Source of the DNA: a bacterium
Lineage (GTDB): Bacteria > UBA9089 > UBA9088 > JAGUXG01
Assembly: GCA_043798435.1 (NCBI GenBank)
Contig: JAZDOR010000047.1
Coordinates: 1 to 37,932 of the forward strand
Length of the DNA: 37,932 nucleotides
Reading direction: 5' to 3'
How positions within the stretch are numbered: the stretch's first letter is position 1; every line of letters begins with the position of its first letter. The notes beneath the pieces are model-generated. The model was not told where the DNA came from. It saw only the letters and a program-made list of their open reading frames with translations, and made no database searches. The position numbers were made by a program, and so were the translations under genes. Below, in pieces: positions 2,657 to 32,381 of this stretch.

Positions 2657-2806
2657 ATAAGCGTTCAGGCAGTGTAACAAAAGGAGATAAGGAGATAAAA
2701 GGGATATGGAGATATTTTTAAGGGAAAAGAAAATAATTCATCTCCCCATCCCCCATATCTTCTTATCCCCCTTCTTACACTTTTTTTGTATAGCCTGAAC
2801 GGTTAC
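2657..2806. mobile_element. GTAAG-type MITE shell with GGAGATA arms and an empty centre
   Basis: (A)TAAGCGTTCAGGC-AGTGTAA...TTACAC...GCCTGAACGGTTAC with GGAGATAAGGAGATA / TATCTTCTTATCCCC arms. No clean TSD. Confidence 0.75.
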
Positions 2807-2813
2807 CAAATAA

Positions 2814-4007
2814 CTATGGTCTTTCATTTAGTGGCTTTATAGCGATATTAGCATCAATAGAAGGCACTCTTTGCACAGGTTCTGTCAAGAGAAAATCTCC
2901 TTTTAGTATCCATTCCTTCAGAATATTGGCTATCTCCTTTGCCTTGACATAACTTGAAAGCCCACCTGTAGGCACCTCTTTGCCATTTATCTTTATCTTT
3001 CCACTCTTCAACTGGGCATAGTTTACCTCAGTCAAAACATCTGGTTCCCTTTCTGGATAGGCATGGCTGTAATCTACCACTGGTGCAAATATCTCTTCAT
3101 CTCGAACTGCTGTATATCTACATATCTCCTCATTGAGCATAGGGATGGGAACACCAATCCCTACAGCAAGACTCACCCCATAACCTGTTATACTTGCACC
3201 TCGCAGCCAGGCGGGTTTCATCTGCTTCAGGTCTCCAATTACCGCTAAGGTTCCCCCAGACCTCTTTGGCACCTGGTTTTCTCCTCTAATGACATTTGGA
3301 TTGTGCTGTGTTCCCTGCCACGCAACATAGCCTATTCCACCACCCAAGAATATCCTTGTGCCGATGCCAATAATAGAATAGAGCGGGTCATTCAATAAAG
3401 GAGAAAGCTGTCCAGCACTGGAATAATTAGCGTTGCCAAGTCTTGGCAGTAAAGCCCCCAAATAGGTGTAAATAATCTTATCAGAAAGGTTTACGGCAAC
3501 ATTGTAGTTTTGATAAGCATTTCTGGGATTAAATAGCACAGCTTCATTTAGGTCAGAGATGTTAATCAAAGTGGTAAGCTCTTTTTTTGGATAGCAGTCT
3601 GTGCCATAAGAGACCACCTTCATTCTTATATCCTTTCCTGAAACCAGTTCTTCAATTATATGACCCCCACCATACCTGAATGCACCAGGATAGACAGTAT
3701 TAGCTGGATCATCCTCTGGGAGTTCTGTCGCCCCAAGATAGACATCTACTGCCGCTAAACCTGCATAAGCTGGAACATTGTTCAGCCATGCCTTCTGTGC
3801 CTTTATCCTTGGTTTAGAATGACCAAAGTTGAAATAGACTCCAGATGAGCACATGGGACCAAAGGTAGCCGTAGTTACAACATCAACCTCCTTTGCCACT
3901 TGAGACACACCCTTCTTATCCACCAGATCAATAATCTCTTCTGCTGTGACAACTACTGCTTCACCCTTCTTAATCTTCTCATTGATCTCTGCGATCGTCT
4001 TAGCCAT
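2814..4007 (-). CDS. DUF39 homocysteine biosynthesis protein (L-aspartate semialdehyde sulfurtransferase, MA1821/MJ0100-like; no CBS tail)
   Basis: KTIAEINEKIKKGEAVVVTAEE, VDVVTTATFGPMCSSG, YGTDCYP, NPRNAYQNY, SSAGQLSPLLNDP. Confidence 0.9.
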   Translation of the reverse strand: MAKTIAEINEKIKKGEAVVVTAEEIIDLVDKKGVSQVAKEVDVVTTATFGPMCSSGVYFNFGHSKPRIKAQKAWLNNVPAYAGLAAVDVYLGATELPEDDPANTVYPGAFRYGGGHIIEELVSGKDIRMKVVSYGTDCYPKKELTTLINISDLNEAVLFNPRNAYQNYNVAVNLSDKIIYTYLGALLPRLGNANYSSAGQLSPLLNDPLYSIIGIGTRIFLGGGIGYVAWQGTQHNPNVIRGENQVPKRSGGTLAVIGDLKQMKPAWLRGASITGYGVSLAVGIGVPIPMLNEEICRYTAVRDEEIFAPVVDYSHAYPEREPDVLTEVNYAQLKSGKIKINGKEVPTGGLSSYVKAKEIANILKEWILKGDFLLTEPVQRVPSIDANIAIKPLNERP

Positions 4008-4032
4008 ATCTAAACCTCCAGTATAAGTAACG

Positions 4033-5298
4033 CTATTTTAATAAATCGTTTAGTTCACAAGAAAGCAGGGCTGATTTATTGAGTATAATCTCTTCTTTCT
4101 GGTTGAAATTATCTGCGGTCATTCTGATGAGCTTGGTTGTAATGGTGTCACCGAGCATTATGCGATTCGTTTTTTTGAGATAGTTCTCGGTTTTCTGATA
4201 AAAAAGAGTAACATATTGCATCAATTTATCCTCCGGAGCAGGTTCCCAGCTGGTTTTTAATTCAACCAAGTCTTTAATTTTCTCGTCTACGGGTATTGAC
4301 AAATCTCCGTCTTGACGATCAATCCAGTAGTCACTGATAGAGTAAATAATTCTCACTGATTTTCCATTCTCTGTGTTGTATCGGCATATGAAAGAAAAAA
4401 TATCAGTGTGGAAGTCCTGATGGACATCCACATTTTTCAATGTAGTTACTGTATGAATCTTATATTCATCAAGAAGACGAAAATAGCTTTCTCGCCAATT
4501 TTTAAGCCAGTCTTCAATAAATGTCTGATTTATAAAAAGAGGTGTGAGATCCTGTTTAAGATTCGTGTCGTTCACCTTATTCATTTGTAAGGTAAGTTTG
4601 TCAAAAAGGGCTCGCTGGTCTTTTGCATCAACCCCTTTTGCAATAAGATATTCAAGATCAATCGCCACTTTTTTTCCCATATACCAGAGAAGATCATAGA
4701 TATCACGCCCCTTTTCTTCATATACCTCTTTACCTACTCCACGCTGTCCACGCAGGAAAATAGCAGCAATCTTGCTCGCCATAAGCGTAGGCATATTGTA
4801 GGTCTTAATCACAAATGAAAGCTGTCCGTAATTCATTGGTATTCGCTCAGTTACCGTTTTTGGAGCAGTAAAGTGATTGAGATCAATTTTGACATGCACC
4901 TGCTTTGACGGATGGCTGATACCTAACTCATCACATATATGGAAATTTAGACGCAATCCCCTGTTGTCTACTTTTATAGTAAGCAGTTTTGAATCGGTAC
5001 CATAGGTGCTTAAAAAATGTGCCTCTATTTCTTCTTTCAGCTCATTCAGAAATGCATCTGATATGGGGTGTGCAACTTCAAAATCTAAATCAACCGACAT
5101 ACGATCAAGCCCGTGGCATATGCGGAGCGCAGAACCGCCATACATAGTCCAATTGCTGTAATCTGGGTGATGATAAATAAAGTTAAGAACATAAAACTGT
5201 AACTCCTCTTTGAGCACATTACGCTGTCTCTCGACATCTACCTTCCCGGAAATGTCATCAAGCTTTCTTTTGAGTGCTATAAGAATCTGATTATTCAT
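4033..5298 (-). CDS. AbiEii-family nucleotidyltransferase toxin with C-terminal extension
   Basis: MYGGSALRICHGLDRMSVDLDF, ASKIAAIFLR, KGRDIYDLLWY; overlaps the upstream antitoxin gene. Confidence 0.88.
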   Translation of the reverse strand: MNNQILIALKRKLDDISGKVDVERQRNVLKEELQFYVLNFIYHHPDYSNWTMYGGSALRICHGLDRMSVDLDFEVAHPISDAFLNELKEEIEAHFLSTYGTDSKLLTIKVDNRGLRLNFHICDELGISHPSKQVHVKIDLNHFTAPKTVTERIPMNYGQLSFVIKTYNMPTLMASKIAAIFLRGQRGVGKEVYEEKGRDIYDLLWYMGKKVAIDLEYLIAKGVDAKDQRALFDKLTLQMNKVNDTNLKQDLTPLFINQTFIEDWLKNWRESYFRLLDEYKIHTVTTLKNVDVHQDFHTDIFSFICRYNTENGKSVRIIYSISDYWIDRQDGDLSIPVDEKIKDLVELKTSWEPAPEDKLMQYVTLFYQKTENYLKKTNRIMLGDTITTKLIRMTADNFNQKEEIILNKSALLSCELNDLLK

Positions 5299-5902
5299 AG
5301 TTTTTTATCATCATATAAAATTTTTCCTGCTCTTTCTCGCTCATCTCATCAATGTCAATACGTAACTCTGCAACCAGTGCTTTTATCTCCTCAAACTTTA
5401 TCCCACAAAATCGGTGTGTCTTGAAGTAAAGCAGATCGAAAAGTGCTTTTGCAGGAGATGCAATGAAGAAATCGAATCTCCCCATACCTAAAGAAAAATC
5501 TGAAAATAATTCTTTTTGAATAGATTGGTAAGAAAAATTACCTATCTTTGTCTTATACGCTCGGGTTACTTTTGGTGTAATTGACATTATTGTGTGTATT
5601 GCTTCAGTGGTCAGATCATAATATTGAAGAGCAGTCCACGAACTCACATATGACGGTGTGCGAAGGATATTAGCAAGATAGAATGAATAGGAGATGTCGC
5701 CTTTGTTTTTATTATAAAAATCAGCAGATACATACAATCCCTTTTTGATAGAGATGATTTCCTTGCGTTTTAATGACCGACTGATATAGGTATCAACTGT
5801 GGTGCTTTTAAGACCATACTGCTCGCTAAGCTGATATATAGCTTTCTTTTTGAAATATGGCTGAGATTTCAGTTGATTAAGTAATATCTCTCTGTATTTC
5901 AC
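5291..5902 (-). CDS. AbiEi-family antitoxin / transcriptional regulator
   Basis: N-terminal wHTH (IKKGLY), PSYVSSWTALQYYDL, IASPAKALFDLLY; translationally coupled to the AbiEii-like gene. Confidence 0.85.
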   Translation of the reverse strand: MKYREILLNQLKSQPYFKKKAIYQLSEQYGLKSTTVDTYISRSLKRKEIISIKKGLYVSADFYNKNKGDISYSFYLANILRTPSYVSSWTALQYYDLTTEAIHTIMSITPKVTRAYKTKIGNFSYQSIQKELFSDFSLGMGRFDFFIASPAKALFDLLYFKTHRFCGIKFEEIKALVAELRIDIDEMSEKEQEKFYMMIKNYE

Positions 5903-5943
5903 AATTGTGATGATATTGTATTAAATGTGAAATAAGATGTCAA
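5896..5943 (-). promoter_or_regulatory. sigma70-type promoter and candidate autoregulatory operator of the AbiE operon
   Basis: TTGACA (5943-5938), 17 bp, TACAAT (5920-5915); inverted repeat ATTTCACA...TGTGAAAT spans the -10 region. Confidence 0.65.
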
Positions 5944-5950
5944 GAAAAAT

Positions 5951-6041
5951 GTAACTACTCAGGTTGTCAAAGTTCAAGATTCATAGTTCATCGTTTAAGT
6001 CGCTTTCTGAAAACCGTGAAAGACTGAACCTGAATAGTTAC
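5951..6041. mobile_element. Short GTAA-ended MITE-like element with GTTCA-type arms
   Basis: GTAACTACTCAGGTT / AACCTGAATAGTTAC. No TSD. The right end contains the pscS stop codon. Confidence 0.75.
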
Positions 6042-7159
6042 CCTCCCTTCACTATCTCACTAAATGCAGAATATAGGTATTTAACCTGCTCCCAGGTTAA
6101 TCCATAAGTAGAAAGCTTAAACCAGTCAGTCTGACCCGGCTTTAAACCAGTTATTCCCCTTTTTTCCAACTCATAATAAAGAAAATAGCCTTTTTTACGA
6201 TGTTTTTCAGCAATCTTGCTTAAAGCAGGGGTTTTTAGTCGGATCAAATCATGGTCTTTTGGTCTCTTTCCAAGCTGTTCAATATCTCCGAGAGCCTCCA
6301 TCTGCTTCACAAACCAGCGGGCTTTTTCTACCTCTTCATTCCAATGTTTCACCCTCTCCTTTACATAAGGTAAGGCAGTAATAAGGCAGGCAGCAGCCCC
6401 TGAGCGGGCTGTGCAACCAAGAAGCTCAACATCCTTTTTGGGATACTTATCAGACTTTCTAAATAATCTCTCTGCCAATTTTTCAGTAGTGGCTAAAACC
6501 CCAATCGTCCCTGGGACACCAAACCCTTTATGGCAGGAGGTAACAATAAAATCAGCTAAAAGCTCCTTTCCCTTAACCTCCATCCTACCAGCAGTATAAG
6601 CACAGTTGAGGAGAAATGGCACATCAAGCCCCTGGCAGATTTCACCCACTTTTTTTGCATCAACTAAGTTGCCATAATCTCCATCAACATGGGTAAGCAA
6701 GGCAAGCTTTGGAGGTTTTTTTGTCTCTTCTAATACCTTCTCAAATGTCTTTTGATATGCCTCTGGTCGTATCTCGTATTCAGGATAGCCTGTATTTTCC
6801 ACCTCATAGATTTTGGCTCCGGCACGCTCTGCCGCCACATAGGTGCTATAATGCCGATTAGAATCAACTACTATTGAATCGCCGCTTGAAAGCAGGGTAT
6901 GCATCACGGCAAATTTTCCTTCACGGCAACCCAGGGTAAGCCGAGCCTCATCCATACCAAGAAACTGAGCTAAATCTTTGGTCAATTCGCAGATAGGAGG
7001 CTTTTCAATCAGATGAAGAACGCCTTTACAGTAGTCGCAAACAGAATATCCATCAACAAAACTCGCCGCCGTAATCCTTACCTCTGCATTCGTCCTTCCT
7101 CCAGTCTGAAGGGGATTCAAATTTATGCAGCACTCCTCCCTTGTTCTAATCAGGCTCAT
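6038..7159 (-). CDS. pscS: O-phosphoseryl-tRNA:Cys-tRNA synthase (SepCysS), PLP-dependent
   Basis: INLNPLQTGG, DGYSVCDYC (CxxC), HYSTYVAAERAG, THVDGDYGNL, SCHK (PLP Lys), ELLGC, KLSTYGL. Confidence 0.92.
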   Translation of the reverse strand: MSLIRTREECCINLNPLQTGGRTNAEVRITAASFVDGYSVCDYCKGVLHLIEKPPICELTKDLAQFLGMDEARLTLGCREGKFAVMHTLLSSGDSIVVDSNRHYSTYVAAERAGAKIYEVENTGYPEYEIRPEAYQKTFEKVLEETKKPPKLALLTHVDGDYGNLVDAKKVGEICQGLDVPFLLNCAYTAGRMEVKGKELLADFIVTSCHKGFGVPGTIGVLATTEKLAERLFRKSDKYPKKDVELLGCTARSGAAACLITALPYVKERVKHWNEEVEKARWFVKQMEALGDIEQLGKRPKDHDLIRLKTPALSKIAEKHRKKGYFLYYELEKRGITGLKPGQTDWFKLSTYGLTWEQVKYLYSAFSEIVKGG

Positions 7160-7323
7160 AGAGACCCCTCCAATTCATCTAATATCTCTTTTGCCTTCTG
7201 AATGCTTTGCTGTATCTGGTTCTTTTCTTCTGGACTAAACCTATGAACAGGTGCTGTCTGCCTGAGGATATCCCTTAACCTCTCCATCAATGCCAATATT
7301 TCAAATATCTTCTCTACCTTCAT
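7156..7323 (-). CDS. 55-aa helical protein, SepCysSn-like; not in the ORF track
   Basis: Manual translation MKVEKIFEILALMERLRDILRQTAPVHRFSPEEKNQIQQSIQKAKEILDELEGSL; fills the rrf2-pscS gap and ends in an ATGA overlap with the pscS start. Confidence 0.75.
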   Translation of the reverse strand: MKVEKIFEILALMERLRDILRQTAPVHRFSPEEKNQIQQSIQKAKEILDELEGSL

Positions 7324-7741: not shown

Positions 7742-7758
7742 CTATCTTTGTTATCTTC

Positions 7759-7943
7759 GTAAGCGTTCAGCCTATTAATCAAAGAGTGTAAGAAGGGGGA
7801 TAAGAAGATAATGGGGAAACGAGAGAGAATCCAGAATACAGAATCCAGAATTCAGAATATTAAATTCTGTATTCTGACTCCTGAATTCTGACTTCTATTA
7901 ACCTTTCCCATATCCCCTTTTTTTACACTACCTGAACGGTTAC
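7759..7943. mobile_element. GTAAG-type MITE shell (GGAGATA arms) with nested AGAATTC palindrome (7826..7896)
   Basis: GTAAGCGTTCAG / CTGAACGGTTAC; flanks TTATCTTC (7751-7758) and TTATCTCC (7944-7951), a 7/8 match. Confidence 0.85.
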
Positions 7944-8076
7944 TTATCTCCCCAAATAAAGATATTTTACTAACTTTGAGCAATTTCATCAACAACTATC
8001 TATTCCTCATTTTGTATGTGTTTAGCTGTTTTGCAACCTCAGTATTTATAAGGGGTTATACACCATTATTTTCTGA

Positions 8077-8134
8077 TTTTGGAGTGCATTGACCATGTCA
8101 ATGCACGCATCGTCACTGACGATGCACTCCAAAA
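8077..8134. repeat. REP-like inverted doublet of GGAG-hairpin units
   Basis: TTTTGGAG-TGCATTGAC-CAT-GTCAATGCA followed by the inverted unit GCATCGTCA-C-TGACGATGCA-CTCCAAAA. Confidence 0.65.
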
Positions 8135-8138
8135 GGAG

Positions 8139-8813
8139 CTAAACACATACCTCATCTTTAATGGTCCCTGATATACACCCCGGCATATTCCTGGCAAAGG
8201 TGACAAGAAACAATAATCCCTTTTGAACATCAGGATCTCTTATGGCAGAAATAAGTTTTCTTAAGCCTGGTTTAGGTGGCTCTTTCGCAAATTGCTGCAT
8301 GGTTTTGACTGCACATTCTCCCATTCCTTGTATCATGCACTGCGTCTCTTTGCCAAGAAGAATATCAATCTCTTTAGCCTCAAAGCTGGCCAAGAAATTC
8401 AGGAGTTTATTGAAGGCACCAATATTCTCTCCAGTCTTTTGGATAAGCTGTAGCGTTTCATCCTTTTCAAAGGATTCTCTGAGCATTTTTATGCTGGGTG
8501 CTGTCTCCTTAGAAATCTTTTCAATAGCTGGATATAGGTCTTCAGCTAAACCCTTTGCAGCCACCATTACATCTAAAAGTTTTATAAAGGTTGGTATATT
8601 CTCCCCAACCTTCTTAATCAAGGTTAAGGTCTCATCCCTTTCAAATCTTTCTCGCATCTCTCTAATTGTTGTCTGCGTCTCCTTAGAGACCTTTTCAAAA
8701 CCAGGAGCCAAATCTGCTATAAGGTTTTCAATGGTGTTAAGCCTATTGTATATCTCATCTATCTGGACAGCCATTCTCTCATGACCATTCGTGGGTAACG
8801 ATTTATTTACCAT
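8139..8813 (-). CDS. DUF1641-family helical protein
   Basis: C-terminal GLRKLISAIRDPDVQKGLLFL; internal repeat FERDETLTLI / FEKDETLQLI; follows an SQR-like gene. Confidence 0.75.
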   Translation of the reverse strand: MVNKSLPTNGHERMAVQIDEIYNRLNTIENLIADLAPGFEKVSKETQTTIREMRERFERDETLTLIKKVGENIPTFIKLLDVMVAAKGLAEDLYPAIEKISKETAPSIKMLRESFEKDETLQLIQKTGENIGAFNKLLNFLASFEAKEIDILLGKETQCMIQGMGECAVKTMQQFAKEPPKPGLRKLISAIRDPDVQKGLLFLVTFARNMPGCISGTIKDEVCV

Positions 8814-8815
8814 CT

Positions 8816-10172: not shown

Positions 10173-10319
10173 GTAAGCGTTCAGCCGTCAGCCATCAGCA
10201 GTCAGCAAAGACCATAAAATCAAGACAAAAGAGGTTTTCCTAACTTCACGGCTTCCTGCTCTTTGTGCTGTAATACCTTGTAAAAGCTGAAAGCTGTCCG
10301 CTGATAGCTGAACGCTTAC
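10173..10319. mobile_element. GTAAG-type MITE with TCAGC-heptamer arms
   Basis: Perfect 13-bp TIR GTAAGCGTTCAGC / GCTGAACGCTTAC; perfect TSD AAGACTAC (10165-10172, 10320-10327). Confidence 0.92.
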
Positions 10320-12400: not shown

Positions 12401-12767
12401 TTACTCAAAATCTTAGGGAGAATATTTAGCCACAGAGCTCACAGAGAGCACAGAGGAATTAGCCACGAATGCACACGAATTAACACTAATAATTCATTCG
12501 TGCCTATTCGTAATATTCGTGTTTATTCGTGGTTTATTCATCTTTCTTTGTGACCTCTAAAGTTCTCTGTGGCGTAACTATTTACCCAAGTGAAGCAGAA
12601 GACAATTGTTCACCTTTAGGGCACCGCTGAGGACGCAGAGAATTTACAAAATTTTTAAGTTTTTATTTCTCTGTGCTCTCTGCGAGCTCTGCGGTTAATC
12701 TCTTCTTCAGATGAGTAAAGTGTTACTCTGTGGCTTTTCCACAATCCTAAATTTTATGAGTAGTTAC
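12397..12767. mobile_element. Composite GTAA-ended MITE: CACAGAG palindrome, nested CACGAAT palindrome and a nested second MITE
   Basis: GTAATTACTCAAAA / TTTTATGAGTAGTTAC; perfect TSD GACGGAGG (12389-12396, 12768-12775). Confidence 0.9.
12574..12726. mobile_element. Nested GTAAC MITE (CGCAGAG arms)
   Basis: GTAACTATTTACCCAAGTGAAG / CTTCAGATGAGTAAAGTGTTAC; perfect TSD TCTGTGGC (12566-12573, 12727-12734); closely similar inverted copy at 24202..24351. Confidence 0.9.
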
Positions 12768-12952
12768 GACGGAGGTTAATAAGATGGGACTGGTTCGCTT
12801 TGGTGTGTCGTTGGAAGATGTGCTTTTAGTAAACTTTGATGATTATATCAAGAAAAAGAGTTATCAGAGACGGAGGTTAATAAGATGGGACTGGTTCGCT
12901 TTGGTGTGTCGTTGGAAGATGTGCTTTTAGTAAACTTTGATGATTATATCAA
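12768..12952 (+). repeat. Direct duplication of the nikR RBS and 5' end
   Basis: 12768..12851 is repeated at 12869..12952 (84 bp, period 101). Confidence 0.9.
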
Positions 12953-13322
12953 AGAAAAGGGGTATCCTACAAGGTCTAAAGCCATCTCCGACCTGATAAG
13001 AGAGGCTTTAGTCAAAGAAGAGTGGCGAGGGCAAGAGAATGTTGCTGGAGCTGTCACCTTAATCTATGACCATCATAGACGGGAATTGGTAAATAAGCTG
13101 ACTGATATCCAGCACGATTTTTATAAAATAATCATCTCCTCCCAGCACGCCCATTTAGACCATAATAACTGTTTGGAAGTAGTTGTGGTGAAAGGAGATC
13201 CAGAAGAGATTAAGAAGCTCGCCAATAGGCTAAAGTCAACTAAGGGTGTCAAGCACTCTGTTTTGACTATGACTACAATTGGAAAGGAGGCTGGAAAAGA
13301 AATAAGTAAAATTGTTAGCTAA
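12885..13322 (+). CDS. nikR: Nickel-responsive regulator NikR
   Basis: RFGVSL ribbon-helix-helix, TRSKAISDLIR, YDHH, QHAHLDHNNCLE. Confidence 0.93.
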   Translation: MGLVRFGVSLEDVLLVNFDDYIKEKGYPTRSKAISDLIREALVKEEWRGQENVAGAVTLIYDHHRRELVNKLTDIQHDFYKIIISSQHAHLDHNNCLEVVVVKGDPEEIKKLANRLKSTKGVKHSVLTMTTIGKEAGKEISKIVS

Positions 13323-18791: not shown

Positions 18792-18922
18792 GACAGAGAA
18801 TACAGAGAAATTCAATGTAAAATTAGCAATGCAAAACTATCAATGCAAATTTTTGAAATGCTAATTGCTAATTTTGCATTTTACATTGAGTTATCTCCTA
18901 ATAACTCTGTGCCTCTGTGGTG
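18792..18922. repeat. CACAGAG palindrome with nested AATGCAA-heptamer palindrome
   Basis: GACAGAGAATACAGAGA [AATTCAATGTAAAATTAGCAATGCAAAA ... TTGCTAATTTTGCATTTTACATTGAGTT] CTCTGTGCCTCTGTGG. Confidence 0.8.
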
Positions 18923-18932
18923 AATATTTGTG

Positions 18933-20162: not shown

Positions 20163-20255
20163 TATGGTTTATGGTTTATGGTTTATAGTTTATGGTTTAT
20201 GGTTTATGGTTTATAGTTTATAGACTATCAACTATAAACTATCAACTATAGACTA
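20163..20255. repeat. TTTATGG/TTTATAG-heptamer palindrome
   Basis: About 9 units of TTTAT(G/A)G followed by ACTATCAACTATAAACTATCAACTATAGACTAT, which includes the DUF1015 stop codon. Confidence 0.85.
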
Positions 20256-21400
20256 TACATCACCACCCCAGAGAAGGGCTTGGGAAAAAAGTAGGTTGCC
20301 TTTCCTGGCATATAAAGAGAGGCTCTTGCTACATCCATCACACCTTGAAACCCTGGTGGTCTGAGCAAAAACCCACAATAGAATTCGCCGCTTTCCACAC
20401 GAGAGAAGACCTCTCTGGCATCTTTGGTATATGCCACATCCTTCTCTTCTTCCTGACTATCAAAGATTACATTATGAAGTATCGCCACATCAACTTTTTT
20501 CAAAGGCTCAGTAAGATTAATCTCCTCTCCTTGTTTTAGGGTTAATATGTATGCCCCGTCCTTTTTTACCATACCAAAAATGCCTATGCCTTTTCTTTCT
20601 GAAAGAATGTTGAGAAGCTCCTCCTTTTTCACCTTCTCTCTTGAAAAGTCAGCAAGTCTCTCCTCTAATAAAGTATCTTTGAGGAGTCTATGTGCCGAAA
20701 GAATAATAAACCCTCCCATATCCTTTTCTAAAAGCATAGCCATCACGGGCTTTTTCAAGGCAAGGGCTGTCTCGTATCTATGATGTCCATCAGCAATAAA
20801 TAGCTGTTTCTTTGAAAGCTCACGAGAAAGCTTCTCCATATCCTCTTTAATCTGCCATAGCCTGCAAAATAGCCCCTTTTTATATTCAAACTGGATTTTG
20901 GGCGGACCAGATGGAGTAAGCCATCTTCCAATCTTTTTCTCTTCATCGCAGTAGACAAGAAATATGGGGCAGAAGTTTGTCTGGGTTTTCTTCAATAGCT
21001 CCAATTGATCCTTCTTTGGTGCGGCAAGTGTTCTTTCGTGAGGAAGAATCGTTTTTGCATAATATGGCTCAGCCTCAATAGACGCAATAATACCTGACAT
21101 TACCCCTTTTTCCCATTCCTGTTGATAGAGATAGAAAGAGGGGCTTTCCTCCTCTATCAAAACACCCTCTTTCTTCCATTTTGTCTGGAATTCCGCGGCA
21201 CGCGTATATCTATTATTCTCCTCTGTATCCTCTGGATAACCCTTTCCAAGTATGAGCCTGATGACATTACATTGGTGAGCCTGATAGAAAGCCTCTTGCT
21301 CTACACAAGAGATTATATCATAAGGAGGAGCCACAACAGAAGAGATATCAACCTTCTCCTGATTATAAAAAACGCCTCTAAACGGATGTATCTTTGCCAT
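20246..21400 (-). CDS. DUF1015-family protein
   Basis: IHPFRG, VAPPYDII, ILPHERTL, FIADGHHRYETAL, KATYFFPKPFSG. Confidence 0.9.
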   Translation of the reverse strand: MAKIHPFRGVFYNQEKVDISSVVAPPYDIISCVEQEAFYQAHQCNVIRLILGKGYPEDTEENNRYTRAAEFQTKWKKEGVLIEEESPSFYLYQQEWEKGVMSGIIASIEAEPYYAKTILPHERTLAAPKKDQLELLKKTQTNFCPIFLVYCDEEKKIGRWLTPSGPPKIQFEYKKGLFCRLWQIKEDMEKLSRELSKKQLFIADGHHRYETALALKKPVMAMLLEKDMGGFIILSAHRLLKDTLLEERLADFSREKVKKEELLNILSERKGIGIFGMVKKDGAYILTLKQGEEINLTEPLKKVDVAILHNVIFDSQEEEKDVAYTKDAREVFSRVESGEFYCGFLLRPPGFQGVMDVARASLYMPGKATYFFPKPFSGVVMYSL

Positions 21401-22205: not shown

Positions 22206-22255
22206 GGGTTTTTGTAACTAAACACTCACAAAAATATCTGATAAAGGAAAAGGTC

Positions 22256-22284
22256 TTGACAAAATATTGCTTCCAGAGTATATT
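22256..22284 (+). promoter_or_regulatory. Candidate sigma70 promoter toward waaA
   Basis: TTGACA (22256-22261), 17 bp, TATATT (22279-22284). Confidence 0.5.
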
Positions 22285-22515
22285 TCAAGATATTTCTTTT
22301 AAGTAGCAAGAAATATAAGGTTCTGGCAGAGCCAGAACAAAAAAGAAAATTCCTATACTATTACTATTACTATCAAGATATTTTTTTGCAAGGAGCAAAA
22401 AAATATTTTGAGTTTGTTGATGACTATAGCACTTATTTAACCAACTCTATGACCGGATGGATCTCTTGACCCCTTGAACCCTTTTAAGCACATAAATTTA
22501 CTTCAGATGGGTAAA

Positions 22516-22669
22516 TATACCCAAACAAATCAGGCTTACCAAAAATTGTGTTCGTTTATGGTTCTGAGGTTCAAGGTTAGAGAATAAGAGGATTAACCGT
22601 GAACCTTGAACCCTTTAACCCCTGAACCTGAGTAGTTACTTTTTTGTAAACCAATTTCTTTTCGGTATA
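22516..22669. mobile_element. TA-duplicating MITE inserted in the terminal repeat of a GTAAC MITE
   Basis: TATACCCAAACAAATCAGG ... CCAATTTCTTTTCGGTATA; removing it with one TA restores CTTCAGATGGGTAAATAGTTAC; inverted copy at 27350..27510. Confidence 0.85.
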
Positions 22670-22696
22670 GTTACAAAGTTTTTAAAAGAGAAAAAG

Positions 22697-22981
22697 ATGA
22701 AGATTGAAGAAGTAAAAGGAATACGGTATTGCCCAAATTGTGAAAATAGGGGAAGGCACAGAGAAAATAAGCCTTCCTTAATCTCCTTGATATTAACATT
22801 ACTTTTTGCCATCCCTCTTATCATTACGCGGATGTTAGGGGTTTCAGGAAGAAGGAGGAGATACTCCGGGGGCTTTTGGGGATTTGGTAATGGCTTTGGT
22901 GGAGGTAGAGGATTTTCTGGTGGATTCGGTGGCTTTGGTGGAGGTTCCTCTGAAGGAGGGGAAACCTCAGGAAGTTGGTAA
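22697..22981 (+). pseudogene. Probable C-terminal remnant of a TPM-domain (YgcG-like) protein
   Basis: One TM helix followed by the Gly-rich tail GGFGGFGGGSSEGGETSGSW; no TPM domain; starts just after a MITE stack. Confidence 0.5.
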
Positions 22982-24172
22982 ATGTTAAACTGGCTTTATA
23001 ACCTTTTACTTCTCTTTTCAGCTATCCCATTTTTGCTCAAAAACTTCAGTCTGCAAAGGCTTGGTCTCTCTATTCCAAAGGTAAAGCCTGACATCTGGCT
23101 ACATATTGCCTCTATGGGAGAAATGGTCGGGGTTAAGCCGTTCCTTGATGAGGCAAGAAAATCAAACCTTTCCTTTGTCATCTCCTGTATGACCAAGACA
23201 GGTTATCAGACAGCAAAAGGGTTTAGAGAAGAGACATTCTATCTCCCCTTAGACTTCGGCTTCCTTATAAAAAGAACCATCAAAAAGCTTGAGCCAAAAA
23301 TGCTTATCATCTCTGAGACAGAGCTTTGGCCCAATCTGATAAGGTCTGCTAAAAAAATGGGCTGTTCGGTCGTCCTGATAAACGGAAGAATAACAGAAAA
23401 AAGCTACCGAAGGTATCAGCTACTCTCATCTTTGACAAAGGAGGTTCTCTCTTCTTTTGACCTTTTCCTTATGCAGTCGAGCCAAAATGCCGAGAGGATA
23501 AAAAAACTTGGCGCTTCTCCTGATAGGGTAAAGATCTCCGGAAATACAAAGTTTGATTGGTTGGCTTATGATCTCCCTTCTCTCAATATTGATTTTAGAG
23601 GTCTTCCTGTGGTAACATTCGGCTCTATCAGGGAGATGGAAGAGGAGGCTATCGTTTCTTGTTTTTCTAAGCTACGGCAAGCGAATCCGCAAGTAATTGG
23701 CATTATTGCCCCAAGGCACCTTGAAAGGGTAAAGGCAATCTCTGAAAGGCTGGTAGAAAAAAAGATTCCCTTTGTCAAAAGAACAGAGATGCCAACAGAA
23801 ATAGACCCAGGCTCTGTCCTCATTTTAGATACAATAGGTGAACTCAGGTCAGCCTATAAGTCTTCATCCCTTTCCTTTGTTGGAGGAACATTGGCAGACT
23901 ATGGTGGTCACAACCTTCTTGAGCCAGCCTTATTTGAAATACCTGTTCTCTTTGGCACTTATACCTCTCATTTTAAGGATGTAGCTATGGCGATGAAGAA
24001 GGAGAAAGCGGCAATTGAGGTGAGCAATGAAAAGGGGTTAGCAAAAAAGATGGTCTGGTTACTTTCTAATGAAGAAGAGCGACTTTTAATGGGAAAGAGA
24101 GCAAAAGAAGTGGCTCAAAAGTTTGTTGGTGCCTCAGCTCGGGTGTATCTTGAGATTAGTAAATATTTGTAA
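22982..24172 (+). CDS. waaA: 3-deoxy-D-manno-octulosonate (Kdo) transferase
   Basis: IWLHIASMGE, YLPLD, ETELWPNL, APRHLER, DTIGEL, GGHNLLEPA. Confidence 0.92.
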   Translation: MLNWLYNLLLLFSAIPFLLKNFSLQRLGLSIPKVKPDIWLHIASMGEMVGVKPFLDEARKSNLSFVISCMTKTGYQTAKGFREETFYLPLDFGFLIKRTIKKLEPKMLIISETELWPNLIRSAKKMGCSVVLINGRITEKSYRRYQLLSSLTKEVLSSFDLFLMQSSQNAERIKKLGASPDRVKISGNTKFDWLAYDLPSLNIDFRGLPVVTFGSIREMEEEAIVSCFSKLRQANPQVIGIIAPRHLERVKAISERLVEKKIPFVKRTEMPTEIDPGSVLILDTIGELRSAYKSSSLSFVGGTLADYGGHNLLEPALFEIPVLFGTYTSHFKDVAMAMKKEKAAIEVSNEKGLAKKMVWLLSNEEERLLMGKRAKEVAQKFVGASARVYLEISKYL

Positions 24173-24201: not shown

Positions 24202-24351
24202 GTAACACTTTACTCATCTGAAGAAGAAATTAACCGCAGAGCTCGCAGAGGGCACAGAGAAATAAAAACTTAAAATTTTGTAAATTCTCTGCGTTCTCAG
24301 CGTGCTCTGCGGTAAACAATTATCTTCTGCTTCACTTGGGTAAATGGTTAC
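24202..24351. mobile_element. GTAAC MITE (inverted copy of 12574..12726), 33 bp after an orphan GTAACTATTCAG end at 24169
   Basis: Perfect TSD AGATTTTA (24194-24201, 24352-24359). Confidence 0.9.
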
Positions 24352-25386: not shown

Positions 25387-25499
25387 ATGCAGAGGTTAAT
25401 TAGAAAAGTCTTAGTCTTGAGTCTCTTATTGTCTGGAGTTTAATGTTCTTGAGTCTTTGTAATTAGTGTCCAGATTTATGCGGTTAACTATAGTTGCCT

Positions 25500-27310: not shown

Positions 27311-27349
27311 TTAAATTATAACTTTGGGAGACTTAGGAGGAATTCAATG

Positions 27350-27510
27350 TATACCGAAAAGAAATTGGTTTACAAAAAAGTAACTACTCAGGTTCAGGGG
27401 TTAAAGGGTTCAAGGTTCACGGTTAATCCTCTTATTCTCTAACCTTGAACCGTGAACCTCAGAACCATAAACGAACATAATTTTTTGCAAACCTGATTTG
27501 TTTGGGTATA
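27350..27510. mobile_element. TA-duplicating MITE inserted in an AATGCAA palindrome (27341..~27577)
   Basis: Removing it with one TA restores AATTCAATGTAAAATTAGCAATGCAAAA, identical to the uninterrupted copy at ~18809. Confidence 0.88.
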
Positions 27511-27609
27511 AAATTAGCAATGCAAAATTATCATCTTAAAATGATAATTGCTAATTTTGCATTTTGCAATGAGTTATTCTCTGTATCCCTAAAGGTAAAT
27601 AGCTATTTA

Positions 27610-28512
27610 TCATCCTATAGCCAGCATCTTCTCAATAGACACACTTGCTCTCCGTGCTATCTCTTTGGGTATTTCTATCTGATAAGCCTCTTCTTCAAGT
27701 GACCATAAGACCTTTTCTAATGTGGTGAGCTTCATATTTGGGCAAATAGCCAGATCTGCGGCAGGATAAAACTCTTTTTCCGGATTCTCCTTTTTCAGCC
27801 TGTAAATGATACCTAACTCTGTGCCGATGATAAACTCCTTCTTATTGCTCTCCTTCACACATTTGAGCATTCCACCTGTTCCGAATATCTCATCTGCCAG
27901 GGCTAATGAATCTTTACTGCACTCAGGATGAAGAATAACAACAGCCTCTGGATGCTCCTTTCTTTTTGCGGCAATCACTTCAGGGATTATCCTCATATGG
28001 GTTGGACAGAACCCAGGCCAGAGAATAAGCTCCCTTTTTGTCTTCTTTGCTGCATAATCACCAAGCCATTGGTCAGGCACAAAGATTATCTCTTTGCCTT
28101 CCTCTATCTGAGAGATAACATTGATAGCATTAGCTGAGGTGCAACAAACATCAGCAAGAGCCTTTATTTCAGCAGATGTATTTACATAAGCAACCACAAC
28201 CGCATCTGGGTGAGAGGCTTTTAACTTCTTGAGTTCTTCTGGGGTGGCCATATCAGCCAAAGGACAGCCAGCATTCACATCAGGAAGAAGAACCATCTTC
28301 TCTGGTGAGAGAATCTTGGCAATTTCAGCCATAAAATGGACGCCACAGAAGACGATAATATCTGCTGTTGTAGATTGAGCCCTCCTTGAAAGGTCAAGGG
28401 AATCCCCTAATAAGTCTGCTATATCCTGAACTTCACCTATCTGATAGTTGTGAACCAGAATGATTGCATTCTTCTTTTTCTTAAGCTCTAAAATTTTATC
28501 CTTTATCTTCAT
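27610..28512 (-). CDS. nadA: Quinolinate synthase
   Basis: HNYQ, FCGVHFMAE, AGCPLAD, CPTH, HPEC, CPNMK. Confidence 0.95.
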   Translation of the reverse strand: MKIKDKILELKKKKNAIILVHNYQIGEVQDIADLLGDSLDLSRRAQSTTADIIVFCGVHFMAEIAKILSPEKMVLLPDVNAGCPLADMATPEELKKLKASHPDAVVVAYVNTSAEIKALADVCCTSANAINVISQIEEGKEIIFVPDQWLGDYAAKKTKRELILWPGFCPTHMRIIPEVIAAKRKEHPEAVVILHPECSKDSLALADEIFGTGGMLKCVKESNKKEFIIGTELGIIYRLKKENPEKEFYPAADLAICPNMKLTTLEKVLWSLEEEAYQIEIPKEIARRASVSIEKMLAIG

Positions 28513-28515
28513 CGT

Positions 28516-28682
28516 ATGAGTTTTGAGTTATGAGTTTTGAGTTATGAGTTTTGAGTTATGAGTTTTGAGTTATGAGTGATGAGTTATGAGTTTTGAGTTT
28601 TGAGTTTTGAGTTTTGAGTTTTGAGTTTTGAGTTTTGAGTTATTTTATTAAACTCTAAACTCTGAACTCTACACTCTGAACT
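28516..28682. repeat. GAGTTTT/GAGTTAT heptamer palindrome with an expanded left arm
   Basis: About 18 heptamer units, then AAACTCTAAACTCTGAACTCTACACTCTGAACT. Confidence 0.9.
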
Positions 28683-28689
28683 TTTCTGA

Positions 28690-29004
28690 CTATAGAGTTT
28701 CAGTGAAACAGCTCCTCGTTCCCCTATGGCAAGCAACACCTGTCTGTTTCACCTTAATAAGAAGTGTATCTTTATCACAGTCATAGAGTATCTCTTTCAC
28801 ATCCTGAAGGTTTCCAGAGGTCGCCCCTTTGTTCCAAAGCTCCTGCCTTGACCGGCTGAAAAACCAGGTCTTTCCTGTTTCAAGGGTCTTTGCCAGAGAC
28901 TCCTTGTTCATATAGGCAAGCATCAGGACTTCGTTATTATCTACATCCTGAATGATGGCTGGAATCAGACCCTCTTTGTTAAAAGCAAGTTCTTCTATCT
29001 GCAT
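28690..29004 (-). CDS. hisI: Phosphoribosyl-AMP cyclohydrolase
   Basis: [31 protein letters not shown]. Confidence 0.95.
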
Positions 29005-29017
29005 ATTTCTAAAAGAA

Positions 29018-29092
29018 GTGATCGGTTATCGGTAATCAGTAATCGGTAAGGGAAACAATTACCGGTAACCGATTACCCGATAACCTGATTAC
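29018..29092. repeat. GTAATCG-heptamer palindrome
   Basis: GTGATCGGTTATCGGTAATCAGTAATCGGTAA ... TTACCGGTAACCGATTACCCGATAACCTGATTAC. Confidence 0.88.
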
Positions 29093-29099
29093 CATTTTC

Positions 29100-29270
29100 C
29101 TATTTTTTCTTCGTCTTCTCTATCATGGAAGGAGAGAGGAGAATGCTTATCGGCACAAGCACAAGCCCAGCAACAATGAAGAGCGGACCAAGAAATAGCC
29201 TCCTCAGATAGAGAAGGAGAAACCCTAAAGCATATACCCCAACTGCAATGGCGAATATCTTCTTGTTCAT
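29100..29270 (-). CDS. 56-aa two-helix membrane protein; not in the ORF track
   Basis: MNKKIFAIAVGVYALGFLLLYLRRLFLGPLFIVAGLVLVPISILLSPSMIEKTKKK; TATAAT 7 nt upstream of the ATG. Confidence 0.65.
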   Translation of the reverse strand: MNKKIFAIAVGVYALGFLLLYLRRLFLGPLFIVAGLVLVPISILLSPSMIEKTKKK

Positions 29271-29318
29271 TGGCTATATTATATCAACCACACCTTAAAA
29301 ATTGCAATCAGATTTTAA

Positions 29319-29481
29319 ATAAGCGTTCAGGTAGTGTAAGAAAAGGAGAGGACAGAGATTATGGAGATAAGGGGATAAAATTTTGAATTAAAAATTAAGA
29401 ATTAAAAATGAATTATCTCCATATCCCCATTATCTCCTTATCCCCTTTCTTACACCTCTGATACATAGCCTGAACTGTTAC
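29319..29481. mobile_element. GTAAG-type MITE shell (GGAGATA arms)
   Basis: (A)TAAGCGTTCAGGTAGTGTAAG ... CTTACAC ... GCCTGAACTGTTAC; same family as 2657 and 7759; no TSD. Confidence 0.78.
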
Positions 29482-32163
29482 CTATCTATTTATCACCCTA
29501 TCCAAGATATCACCCATCTCCTCTGGAGCATATGGCTTGGGTATAACACCAGCGAAGCCATAACTTTTATAATCAGACATTATTGGGTCATTGGAGTATC
29601 CAGATGAGACGACGGCTTTAACCTCAGGGTCAATATTCTTCAGGAATTTAAGGCACTCTAAACCACCCATTCCACCAGAGACAATCAGGTCTAAAATGAC
29701 GGCATCAAAGGGCTTTCCTCTCTCCTTTTCCTTTCTGTATAGCTCAATAGCCTCTTTGCCATTTGTGGCCAGGGTTGTTTCATAGCCAAGAAATTTGAGG
29801 AGTTCGTCTGTAACCTCAAGGACAAGGGGTTCATCATCCATAAGAAGCACCCGTCCACCTTTTCTTGTTACTGGTTCTGGCCTTTCCTGCTCTCTCCTTT
29901 CTGAGGCAGGAAGAAAAATGGTGAATGTTGAACCTTCTCCCAGCTCTGAGGTTACCTCTAATCTACCACCGTGCTTTTTGATGACTGAAAAGGCTACAGA
30001 GAGTCCCAGGCCACTCCCCCTCTGCTTTGTCGTAAAGTATGGGTCAAATATTTTGCTGATATGCTCTTTGGAGATGCCAATCCCTGAGTCTTTTATGGAG
30101 AATTTGATAAATCTATCGCCGTTTTCTTTTTTGTTTTCTGCCAAAACCTCTATTACACCGCCACCTGGCATAGCATCACTGGCATTTAGGATTAGATTGG
30201 TGATTACTTGAGATATCTGGCCAGGGTCGCATTCAGTCTGCCAGAGGTTATCTGGTATATGAAAAGAGCAGACAGAGGCAGAGCCAGTTAAAGCAAAGCC
30301 TGCTATATCCCGTATCAGCCCTGAGATACATATTATTTTCTTTATAGGTTCTCCACCCTTAGCAAAGGTGAGCAATTGCTGGGTCAGGTCCTTTGCCCGT
30401 AAGATTGCCTTTTCTCCACCCGCTAACATCCTGTTCACCCTATCCTCTTTGGTGTGCATCTTGGCTAAGGCAATGTTGTTCAAAACCGCTGTCAGAATAT
30501 TGTTGAAGTCATGGGCTATGCCACCGGCAAGGAGACCGATAGATTCAAGCCTTGAGACCTCTGTTCTCTTCAACTCTTCCTCCATCCTTCTCTTTTCAGT
30601 AATATCTGTCAAGAAAATAAGGGTGGCAGGTTGCCCTTGCCAGGTAATCAAGACACCATAAATCTCTGTCCATCTTACCTTGCCATCCTTTGTCTGCCAC
30701 CTGAAGGTATAGAAAGGAACATCTTCTCCTGAAAGCCTTCTTTTGTGATGCTCACCTACCAAGCTTCTGTCATCTGAATACACAAAATCAAGGAAATGCT
30801 TAGTGAGAAGCTCTTCGTCTGAATAAGCGGAAAGCTCCTTTGCCTTTGGGTTGAAGAAGACTATCCTTTCGTTCTGGATTACTAATATAGCTTCACTGGC
30901 ATTATCTACAACTAATCTATACTTCTCCTCTTGTTGTCTCAGAGCATCTTCTGCCTTCTTTTTAGCCGTAATATCACGGGTGACACCAAAGATGCTTGTA
31001 GGCTTGTTATCCTTATCGCGGAGGAATGTTGTCCTGTTCTCTGTCCAGATTATTGAGCCATCTTTGCAGGGCTGTTCCACCTCAATGGTTCGCCATCTTC
31101 GTAGGTCTTTCTTTTCTTGCTTCTCAATCTCCATCTCCTCAGCCAGGACCTTCATGGCTACTTGATAAGATTCAGGGGTAAGGGTATCTTTTATTGTCTG
31201 GTTCATCACTTCTTCAACCGTATAGCCCCTCAGCCTCTCAATATAAGGGCTGATATAGGTAAATCTGAGGTTCAGGTCGCGTATCCAGATGACATCAGCT
31301 ACATTTTCAACCAGGAAGCGATACTTCTCCTCTTGTTGCTTCAGGGCATCCTCTGCCTCCAGACGCTTGGCAATATCCTCCTTCAGGAACTCTATATACT
31401 TCTCCCAGAGCCTTTTAGTAATATCTGACTGGGTGATTATGCCGCAAATCTCTTCTTTCTCATTGACAATAACCAATCTGCGAATCCTCTCCATGTCCAT
31501 TCTCTTTGTCGTCTCATAGACAGAAACATTTATGGTTATGGTCTTCGTAGGCTGGCTCATCACACTGCTTATTTTCAACCTTTTTATCTGCTTTCTTTTA
31601 TGAAAGAGCCGTGTTACATCCCTCTCAGTCAATATGCCGATAGGCTTTTTACACTCCTCTACAACGATACAACTGATAGAAAGCTCAACCATTATTTTTA
31701 TAGCTTCAGAAAGCAGGGTTTCTTTCTGGCAGGTGACTACATTGCGGGTAATCAGTCTGGAGATATCCTTCAATTCAAGAAGGTATTCCGCAGAAAGGTT
31801 TTGGATAATGTCAGAAATGGTTACAACACCAGCAATACTGCCACTGGCTTCTACAACCACAAGGTGCCGTATCTTATGCTTCTCAAACATCTCATGTGCC
31901 TGATAGATGTTCATATCAAGCACAGCAGAGAGGATGGGGCTGGTCATCACCTCACCTATCCTTCTCTCTAAGGAAAGCCCATCGTGAAGCACACGGACAG
32001 CATCCTTTTCTGTAAATATGCCAAGGGGCTTTTTATCCTGGGAGATGATTAGACAGCTTATCTCCTCCTTTCCCATAAGCTGGATGGCATCAGAAATGGT
32101 CGTCTCCGGAGGCACAGAGACAACATTTGTTACGAGGATATCTTTAAGCAGTCTTTCAGCCAT
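29482..32163 (-). CDS. Hybrid histidine kinase: 4 CBS - 2 PAS - HisKA - HATPase - REC
   Basis: Two CBS pairs, two PAS/PAC, LAGGIAHDFNNIL, FDPYFTTK, GSGLGL, LLMDDE. Confidence 0.92.
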   Translation of the reverse strand: MAERLLKDILVTNVVSVPPETTISDAIQLMGKEEISCLIISQDKKPLGIFTEKDAVRVLHDGLSLERRIGEVMTSPILSAVLDMNIYQAHEMFEKHKIRHLVVVEASGSIAGVVTISDIIQNLSAEYLLELKDISRLITRNVVTCQKETLLSEAIKIMVELSISCIVVEECKKPIGILTERDVTRLFHKRKQIKRLKISSVMSQPTKTITINVSVYETTKRMDMERIRRLVIVNEKEEICGIITQSDITKRLWEKYIEFLKEDIAKRLEAEDALKQQEEKYRFLVENVADVIWIRDLNLRFTYISPYIERLRGYTVEEVMNQTIKDTLTPESYQVAMKVLAEEMEIEKQEKKDLRRWRTIEVEQPCKDGSIIWTENRTTFLRDKDNKPTSIFGVTRDITAKKKAEDALRQQEEKYRLVVDNASEAILVIQNERIVFFNPKAKELSAYSDEELLTKHFLDFVYSDDRSLVGEHHKRRLSGEDVPFYTFRWQTKDGKVRWTEIYGVLITWQGQPATLIFLTDITEKRRMEEELKRTEVSRLESIGLLAGGIAHDFNNILTAVLNNIALAKMHTKEDRVNRMLAGGEKAILRAKDLTQQLLTFAKGGEPIKKIICISGLIRDIAGFALTGSASVCSFHIPDNLWQTECDPGQISQVITNLILNASDAMPGGGVIEVLAENKKENGDRFIKFSIKDSGIGISKEHISKIFDPYFTTKQRGSGLGLSVAFSVIKKHGGRLEVTSELGEGSTFTIFLPASERREQERPEPVTRKGGRVLLMDDEPLVLEVTDELLKFLGYETTLATNGKEAIELYRKEKERGKPFDAVILDLIVSGGMGGLECLKFLKNIDPEVKAVVSSGYSNDPIMSDYKSYGFAGVIPKPYAPEEMGDILDRVINR

Positions 32164-32171
32164 TTTTTTTG

Positions 32172-32381
32172 GTAAGTGTTCAAGTAGTATAAAATAAGGA
32201 GAAATGGGGAAAGGGGAGAATTGAAGAAATAGGACGCAGATTAACGCTGATTTACAAGATAGGAATTAAATAAGAATCTGCGCTAATCCTAAAAAATCCT
32301 GAAAATCTGCGTTCTAATTCTTCCCCATCTTCTCCTTTTCTCCTTTCTTACGCATCTTAAAATATAGCCAGGAACGGTTAC
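32172..32381. mobile_element. Degenerate GTAAG-type shell with nested GACGCAGAT palindrome (32230..32316)
   Basis: GTAAGTGTTCAAGTAG ... GGAACGGTTAC; GGAGAAATGGGG / CCCCATCTTCTCC arms; no TSD. Confidence 0.7.

Follow-up and report, generated by a model that had tools for sequence, protein, structure and literature searches.

The window examined here, the 37,932-nucleotide (nt) contig JAZDOR010000047.1, is one of 233 contigs of a 2.23-Mb Nitrospirota draft genome (GCA_043798435.1; 41% G+C), and a repeat of some sort occupies nearly every intergenic spacer in it. Among these repeats is an element, here called the shell, in which conserved ends and arms enclose a variable centre. Our analysis indicates that the shell is probably a non-autonomous transposon, that is a MITE (miniature inverted-repeat transposable element), of the IS66 family, with the single-open-reading-frame (single-ORF) ISBst12-like group as its likely affiliation, and that several MITE families crowd the spacers. 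An initial annotation had described one shell with interchangeable centres and had proposed that new modules are added preferentially into the loops of existing hairpins, by cruciform- or hairpin-directed targeting. The first of these claims is upheld, whereas the evidence does not bear out structure-directed growth in general; a bias toward palindrome axes is seen in a second kind of IS66-type MITE, termed Y-type, and is real, though modest and fragile. The studied genome is 84% complete, which bounds the negative results drawn from it. C-numbers designate its contigs (the window is C135), G001 is a genome of the same genus, G014 and G017 are relatives, and element coordinates are given without strand.

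Ends, arms and fold of the shell

The shell, originally recognized by its GTGTAA and GGAGATA motifs, was located at four intervals of the window, 2657-2806, 7759-7943, 29319-29481 and 32172-32381, and the four copies indeed share the same ends and GGRGATA arms while differing in the middle. Shell ends start GTAAGCGTTCAGG, and all four copies begin with (G/A)TAAG(C/T)GTTCA and finish with GAAC(G/T)GTTAC, inside which lie GTGTAAG/CTTACAC and arms of GGRGATA-like repeats. No ORF of 80 amino acids (aa) or more is present inside the four intervals. Matches to the end motif TAAGCGTTCAG with up to two mismatches number 15 in the window against 8.4 expected, a count reached by 1 of 100 shuffles. Genome-wide pairing of ends gave 118 pairs, 62 of which are shell copies of 128-361 nt. 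Each copy was scored for arm retention against one reference copy, and the medians of 57/57 nt (left arm) and 66/67 nt (right arm), around centres of 9-236 nt, bear out the picture of a single shell with an exchangeable middle.

The composites were also said to fold as one longer stem, and folding with DNA parameters, with z calculated from 30 shuffles per copy, agrees with this. One hairpin loop was obtained in 46 of the 62 shells, two loops in six and three in two, and the remaining eight scored zero with an apical stem shorter than 4 base pairs (bp); the median z was -6.7. When the centre was relocated into an arm in 57 copies, the mean number of loops was 1.94 against 1.04 for the real arrangement, and 46 of these 57 real shells were more stable than the centre-in-arm control.

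Two of the four centres in the window are not hairpins. The copy at 2657-2806, previously considered empty, holds a 25-nt AT-rich non-palindromic centre between arms of 57/57 and 66/67 nt (folding free energy -31.8, z -6.7, one loop); its flanks match at 3 of 8 positions, so the duplication is no longer present, and a sibling lies at C93:18243. The copy at 29319-29481 belongs to the commonest subfamily, and what had been taken for a TAAAAAT-type hairpin arm is an AT-rich tandem repeat forming its centre; its flanks match at 3/8, and on the right it runs directly up to the stop codon of ORF 29482..32163. An AGAATTC-repeat hairpin does form the centre of 7759-7943, in which the left arm is cut to 35 of 57 nt and a duplication, TTATCTTC/TTATCTCC, is preserved at 7/8, with siblings at C90, C165:11206 and C52. 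At 32172-32381 the GACGCAGAT palindrome sits at the centre as described, but the arms have diverged to a GGAGAAA type and define a separate subfamily, other copies of which in the studied genome show 86-95% identity.

Shells fill whole spacers between same-strand genes at 29481/29482, 32163-32172 and 32381-32385, lying directly at the stop codon or 8 nt from the start codon, and no sense-strand ribosome-binding site is visible inside these spacer-filling copies.

Assignment to the IS66 family

The flanks of the shell match as direct repeats only at a length of 8 bp, where 29 of 62 copies reach at least 7/8; at lengths 2-7, 9 and 10 the mean number of matches stays near the shuffled null, with one to three near-perfect copies (lengths 5-10). 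A genome-wide search combining GTAA(G/C) ends, complementary termini and an 8-bp duplication recovered 73 elements and none in a shifted control, and relaxed settings recovered 82 against 2 and 2 in two shifted controls. The ends of the 73 elements are of the IS66 type, starting 5'-GTAA, and include GTAAGCGTTCAG 32 times and GTAACCGTTCAG 18 times. Two main kinds of end are distinguished, the shell kind (GTAAGCGTTCAG/GTAACCGTTCAG) and the Y-type (GTAACTATTTAC/GTAACACTTTAC).

These features agree with those given for IS66 elements in the published text available for comparison. IS66-family elements are quoted in PMC12888890 with ends GTAAGCGTCCGG and GTAACCGTCCGGGCA and 8-mer duplications, and the shell-type ends begin GTAAGCG/GTAACCG, like the ends quoted there. 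ISDge4, of the single-ORF ISBst12 group, is given with ends GTAACTGCTCAGCA and an 8-bp repeat (PMC12898284). With the IS66 family and this group, including classic members such as ISPa75, the shell shares ends that start with GTAA (GTAAGCGT.../GTAACCGT.../GTAACT.CTCAG) and the 8-bp duplication.

A transposase of the matching kind is present as well. The C-terminal part of a DDE_Tnp_IS66 gene lies at a contig end of the studied genome and is followed, about 150 nt on, by a near-identical Y-type right end. IS66 matches were obtained in 14 of 20 relatives, and among the relatives there are cases of a DDE_Tnp_IS66 transposase between ends of this kind: G017 carries an IS66 transposase gene between GTAACCGTTCAGGTA ends, which are shell-type (L063 893-2455), and G014 a 1505-bp element with ends GTAACCGTTCAC and one 468-aa ORF. 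The features by which an IS66 MITE is identified were found, namely IS66-type ends, an 8-bp duplication, small size without a transposase gene and an autonomous element with the same ends, the last for shell-type ends in relative G017 alone and for Y-type ends as the transposase fragment of the studied genome; mobilization of the shell in trans by an IS66 transposase is predicted. The shell differs from the ISBst12 elements themselves in being noncoding, in its length of 128-361 nt and in its long palindrome of short tandem repeats, and no cognate full element with shell-type ends turned up in the draft.

The shell end pattern also occurs in four other metagenome-assembled genomes (MAGs) labelled Nitrospira or Nitrospirota, with shell-like matches in several families of the same phylum, and an 8-bp duplication accompanies 12 of 21 complete shell copies in other MAGs. 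One of these MAGs, of marine origin, carries the same ends around another, non-palindromic centre in at least 18 near-identical 230-nt copies. In the marine MAG many shells lie at contig ends (L003-L052), and the burst of the 230-nt subfamily looks recent and is a likely cause of assembly breaks.

Comparison with G001 points to recent mobility. Window 28690-33000 matches its orthologous region there in separate stretches, and both the shell at 32172 and an element at 32795-32962 fall in the gaps between them. The latter is simply absent from its orthologous site, and at the former site all that is left is about 20 nt similar to a shell end. For the shell at 29319 no clean empty site was found in G001 and G002, in both of which synteny differs.

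Four observations count against the assignment. The 84%-complete draft yielded no full autonomous element whose ends are of the shell type, the G017 and G014 elements lack matching flank duplications, and 33 of the 62 shells have no recognizable duplication. Finally, TnpB_IS66 was not found in the studied 84%-complete genome, which limits the family assignment, although this result fits the single-ORF group.

Interchangeable centres and nested modules

Variation between shell copies is confined to the centre, and the resulting composites are copied as units. One AATGCAA-centre shell and one GACGCAGAT-type shell have perfect 8/8 duplications, and AGAATTC-centre shells are present at four loci, where 5, 8, 7 and 5 of the 8 flank positions match; as composites have duplications of their own, they move as units. 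It follows that independent centre-forming events are few, perhaps nine in this genome rather than 62. Variation restricted to the centre is what MITE families usually show, and the same pattern would be seen if a copy keeps moving only while its ends, and perhaps its arms, are intact.

Centre insertions with intact duplications were found at C3, C32, C200, C186 and C231; that at C3 has its duplication, GAATATTC, at the exact apex, and insertions of Y-type elements into shell centres are identified by end and duplication at C32 and C81. The deepest nesting, at C32:13183, comprises four layers, namely a shell, a Y-type MITE with duplication AAAATTTT, a CACGGAG hairpin and an AATGCAA module.

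Four cases of a module in the loop of another module had been pointed out in the window, and all were located where they had been placed. AGAATTC arms at 1040-1059 and 1184-1209 bound a composite (1040-1209) that contains a CACAGAT hairpin at 1072-1149 and about 35 nt of other sequence, and comparison with two paralogous copies shows its 105-nt inner block to be off the axis by 0.18 of the half-span. A CACAGAG hairpin at 12426-12573, with arms at 12426-12459 and approximately 12545-12573, holds a CACGAAT hairpin (approximately 12460-12534) in its loop. CACAGAG-type arms at 18793-18925 enclose an AATGCAA module (18810-18891) and form a single hairpin with a folding free energy of -24.3. The fourth case, at 32795-32962, is better described as the two-tier architecture of one CACAGAT/CACTGAT palindromic family than as one module added to another, and it is as a whole unit that it is missing from the orthologous site in G001.

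Some centres are modules found in other hosts as well. The termini of the AATGCAA module are constant, and this constancy across hosts suggests that modules of this type move. Both flanks are available for 42 AATGCAA modules, of which 15 continue the stem of the host, seven show offset pairing and 20 have unpaired flanks; the 15 stem-continuing hosts are of three types, comprising seven CACNGAG hairpins, seven shells and one diverged shell. For several modules, however, insertion is unproven, which is a point against reading the centres as insertions: no duplication was found around AGAATTC, AATGCAA, GACGCAGAT or CACNGAG modules, and the hairpin modules bounded by TAACC...GGTTA showed no direct repeat of 3-9 nt, with only nine end pairs testable. 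For modules lacking a duplication, the sequence does not distinguish insertion from deletion or replacement.

An alternative that we consider unlikely is that centres change without any insertion, by internal deletion, by template switching or by recombination between related palindromic MITEs, with breakage at the tips of long palindromes making changes there more likely. Several findings are in line with it. AGAATTC-centre shells keep 35-38 of the 57 nt of the left arm, a loss of 19-22 nt that indicates replacement and not pure insertion, so that the AGAATTC hairpin noted at 7759-7943 is present but was not simply inserted. The TAAAAAT centre is forward in 23 and inverted in two of 25 true copies, as recombination between arms would produce. 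Elements sharing the same ends can have quite different arms and cores, the orthologous site of the 32172 shell retains only the short shell-end-like remnant described above, and the direction of change is not readable for any module without a duplication. Against this explanation stand the five centre insertions with intact duplications, together with AATGCAA termini that stay constant both in unique DNA and across three or more types of host. The two inverted TAAAAAT centres, recognized relative to the asymmetric shell ends, lie at C103:7544-7868 and C119:3336-3500 and look as if arms had recombined.

Position of insertions relative to palindrome axes

To locate insertions within their targets, elements with ends and a duplication were removed in silico and the empty site was rebuilt. 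The host was defined as the best inverted repeat spanning the site with a score of at least 18, the maximum in 40 shuffles being 18, and insertions within 15% of the half-span were counted as near the axis, a cut-off picked after viewing the data. This procedure replaced labels from RNAfold, in which many of the labelled hairpins were weak and not repeats.

Among the 82 insertions dated in this manner, 65 lie in no palindrome and 17 inside one. Targets span 8 bp, of which positions 2-7 form an AT-rich core. Ten of the 17 in-host insertions are near the axis (binomial P 4e-5; Kolmogorov-Smirnov P 4e-4), whereas a null weighted by the target motif expects 3.63 of 17 (P 4.6e-4). The signal resides in the Y-type, which contributes 37 events, 11 of them in hosts and nine near the axis; all other types, the shell-type included, contribute 45 events, six in hosts and one near the axis (9/11 versus 1/6, one-sided Fisher approximately 0.02). 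Motif-weighted random positions outside ORFs fall near an axis in 5.7% of cases (700 sampled, effective n approximately 79), and against this null P is 1.9e-4 for the Y-type and 0.93 for the other types. With a motif taken from out-of-host Y-type events, 2.97 of 11 are expected near the axis against the nine observed (P 3.5e-5). Mapping insertion points against expectation thus separates two behaviours: the Y-type, at 9 of 37, exceeds both the random and the target-motif null, so that AT-richness does not explain its bias away, while the shell-type shows no bias at all. About seven repeat families, unrelated to one another, are represented among the near-axis hosts, one host is a unique inverted repeat, and recognition is not confined to one host family. 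A filter on retention should affect shell-type guests equally, and since the counts differ between the two guest types, retention alone does not account for the Y-type bias.

The axis signal of the Y-type nevertheless remains fragile, and several results besides the post hoc cut-off tell against it. The sample is small. Of the nine near-axis events, that at C95 is a tandem-array artefact and those at C43 and C134 have near-identical flanks, leaving about 7 of 9. The test with RNAfold labels, the negative outcome of which still stands, placed 8 of 73 insertions in apical loops against 6.1 expected (P 0.26). In other MAGs none of 11 usable shell insertions was near an axis, nine having no host and two lying at the margins of weak repeats, and neither of two Y-type insertions in G001 lay in any host. 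A search for Y-type elements in five relatives gave only seven short matches.

The structure-directed proposal can be taken further, such that all modules, with or without terminal repeats, were inserted through recognition of a cruciform or single-strand hairpin loop and elements grew from the apex. We regard this as improbable. It draws on the Y-type bias above the motif expectation in hosts of about seven unrelated sequences, and on every type of shell centre sitting in mid-element. It is also in keeping with an overlapping set of insertions defined by split alignment, which includes elements with TA-type flanks and in which 14 of 26 de-duplicated events are near the axis, compared with an expectation of 6.75 within the range open to detection (P 0.0012); about seven of the 26 are tandem-array artefacts by eye, however, which leaves about 10 of 18. 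Against preferential addition into loops as a general rule stand the 65 of 82 dated insertions that lie in no palindrome, the lack of bias in the shell-type (1/45), the 20 of 42 AATGCAA modules with unpaired flanks, an off-centre Y-type element at 24202-24351 in the window, set near the end of another MITE, and documented insertions into arms. The last include a Y-type element at 12574-12726 in the window, insertions at C164 (0.79 of the half-span) and C205 (0.34), a 23-nt hairpin in a shell arm at C54, the only object of less than 30 nt seen, and 53-nt elements with CCCCGTTAG ends that duplicate TGAAC inside CACAGAT arms. A Y1 transposase, the kind that reads hairpins, is encoded at C122, but its gene is not flanked by modules. 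Of the cruciform or hairpin targeting originally proposed, there remains the axis enrichment of the Y-type, and the RNAfold-loop test lends it no support.

That the hairpins are instead selected functional elements, such as terminators or RNA-processing or protein-binding sites, with selection maintaining the single stem, is highly improbable: although they fill short same-strand spacers, abut stop and start codons and are far more stable than shuffles, no Rfam family matched in the window, copies are absent from orthologous sites in G001, target duplications and near-identical bursts are marks of transposition, and selection on retention would affect both guest types, yet the bias is confined to the Y-type.

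Other elements of the window and genome

Further MITEs with perfect 8/8 duplications were found in the window. An element at 10173-10319 (duplication AAGACTAC) has shell ends but NTCAGCN-repeat arms and another core, and one at 2002-2217 (duplication AGATTTTT) has the related ends GTAACTATTCAGG, AGAATTC-repeat arms and a core of about 100 nt. The Y-type element at 12574-12726, with ends GTAACTATTTAC / GTAACACTTTAC and duplication TCTGTGGC, is inserted off-centre in the CACAGAG hairpin, in the right arm at its outer end, and the element's own right end is nearly identical to the sequence behind the IS66 transposase fragment in the studied genome. A second Y-type element, at 24202-24351 (duplication AGATTTTA), sits within another MITE, which starts at 24169, about 25 nt in from its left end.

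Two other kinds of element were noted. One is distinct and very small, about 40-58 nt long; it is bounded by CCCCGTTAG...CTAACGGGG, duplicates the 5-bp sequence TGAAC and occurs in the arms of CACAGAT modules at C31:5113-5339, C31:2819-3193, C10:1656-1932 and C134:8200-8524, and its target looks sequence-specific rather than structural. TA-flanked elements of 120-240 nt with ends TACCCAAAYAAATCAGG (in another case GTTAACTCC) are present in the window at 22244-22703 and 27349-27578 and elsewhere at C19:15854, C145:19047 and C103:5169, and their flanks suggest that a third chemistry of transposition, one that duplicates TA, is at work.

Tandem heptamer arrays (TAACTCA, GTTTAGA, ACAGAAT, TGGTTTA and others) are common genome-wide, with examples in the window at 20163-20259 and 28515-28677, and are often trailed by the reverse-complement array, giving hairpins; they recall the short tandem heptamer repeats of cyanobacteria. 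A direct repeat of about 31 nt, ACGGAGGTTAATAAGATGGGACTGGTTCGCT, occurs twice, about 100 nt apart (approximately 12771-12801 and 12870-12900), just upstream of ORF 12885..13322. A G+C-richer palindrome with 28-nt arms at 8077-8134, nested in an inverted repeat (8014-8032 / 8132-8150), is unlike the heptamer modules. Across the genome, 14-mers present at least three times cover 17.6% of the sequence, an upper bound; a mask based on 12-mers was dropped as too permissive, as it covered 72% of the genome.

Two genes with a Y1 (IS200-like) transposase domain were found at C122:46947-47288 and C28:6531-6806 (L053, L054), one of 258 aa. The flanks of the C122 gene, the one gene for which they were read, contain no shell or heptamer modules. 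An origin of the elements as REPINs, hairpin-forming populations of repetitive extragenic palindromes (REPs) mobilized by a REP-associated tyrosine transposase (RAYT), was considered and rejected, since the elements are AT-rich, at least 128 nt long and carry 8-bp duplications, and the C122 gene has no flanking modules.

Proposed mechanism and relation to known systems

In the reading that we favour, in which the shell is an IS66-type MITE, the transposase would need the ends, and the conservation of the ends and of the long GGRGATA-repeat arms would reflect this requirement, the middle being free to change. Different centres would have arisen a few times, some through insertion of a small mobile element and some through replacement, and each composite would then have been copied as a unit. 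Nesting would be ordinary transposition of MITE into MITE, with shell-type elements picking AT-rich 8-bp targets regardless of hairpins. The exception would be the Y-type, whose ends match the IS66 transposase fragment of the genome and which would land near the dyad axis of varied palindromes and thereby produce longer single stems. What the Y-type reads may be DNA structure, two-fold symmetry or something else. A tentative possibility, somewhat less remote than the alternatives discussed above though still not one we would expect to hold, is that an IS66/ISBst12 transposase acting on Y-type ends reads the dyad of the palindrome, in the form of cruciform tips or of two-fold symmetric bendable DNA, and not its sequence.

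Parallels exist in other genomes. In Nostocaceae, small dispersed repeats of less than 30 nt, described by Elhai et al. in 2008, are reportedly mobile, nested in each other and in MITEs, and in some cases hairpin-forming, and nested plant MITEs offer a further parallel. REPs are short, rich in G+C and associated with a Y1 transposase gene that they flank. REPINs and REPs with their RAYT resemble the present elements in being palindromes that are plentiful between genes and act like a population of replicators, but the shells differ from them in having target duplications, and the Y1 gene at C122 is not flanked by modules. Bacterial MITEs such as Nezha, Chunjie, Correia and RU likewise combine conserved terminal repeats, target duplication, intergenic location and a variable interior, and show copy bursts and presence or absence at orthologous sites (PMC3184786, PMC10969869); the shell system differs from them in the depth of its nesting, up to four layers, and in its arms of heptamer-like repeats.

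Insertion into palindromic repeats has been described for the REP-targeting insertion sequences IS1397, ISKpn1, IS621 and ISPsy8, with IS3, IS110, IS4, IS256 and IS5 as the families involved (Tobes and Pareja 2006). ISPsy8 is described in the same text as inserting at the symmetry axis of a predicted hairpin. As characterized there, however, each of these elements targets one REP family of its host, whereas the Y-type is an IS66-type MITE found in about seven unrelated AT-rich palindromes, with three quarters of its insertions elsewhere. Literature searches on nested bacterial MITEs, IS66 MITEs and Nitrospirae repeats, covering main texts in a limited collection, returned no description of this system, and the terms 'IS66', 'nested' and 'Nitrospir' do not occur in the 2024 review of prokaryotic MITEs.

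The system is mobile DNA of an ordinary kind; its habit of nesting is what is unusual. The repeat now has a family, that of IS66-type MITEs, a class that goes unmentioned in that review. The finding also explains the long hairpin in nearly every spacer of the window and the breakage of these MAGs into hundreds of contigs at such repeats. If the centre preference of the Y-type holds in larger data, IS66 would join the palindrome-targeting families without dependence on one host sequence. Were its transposase indeed to read the dyad, it would be a sequence-independent integrator at palindrome centres that stacks hairpins into multi-layer stems.

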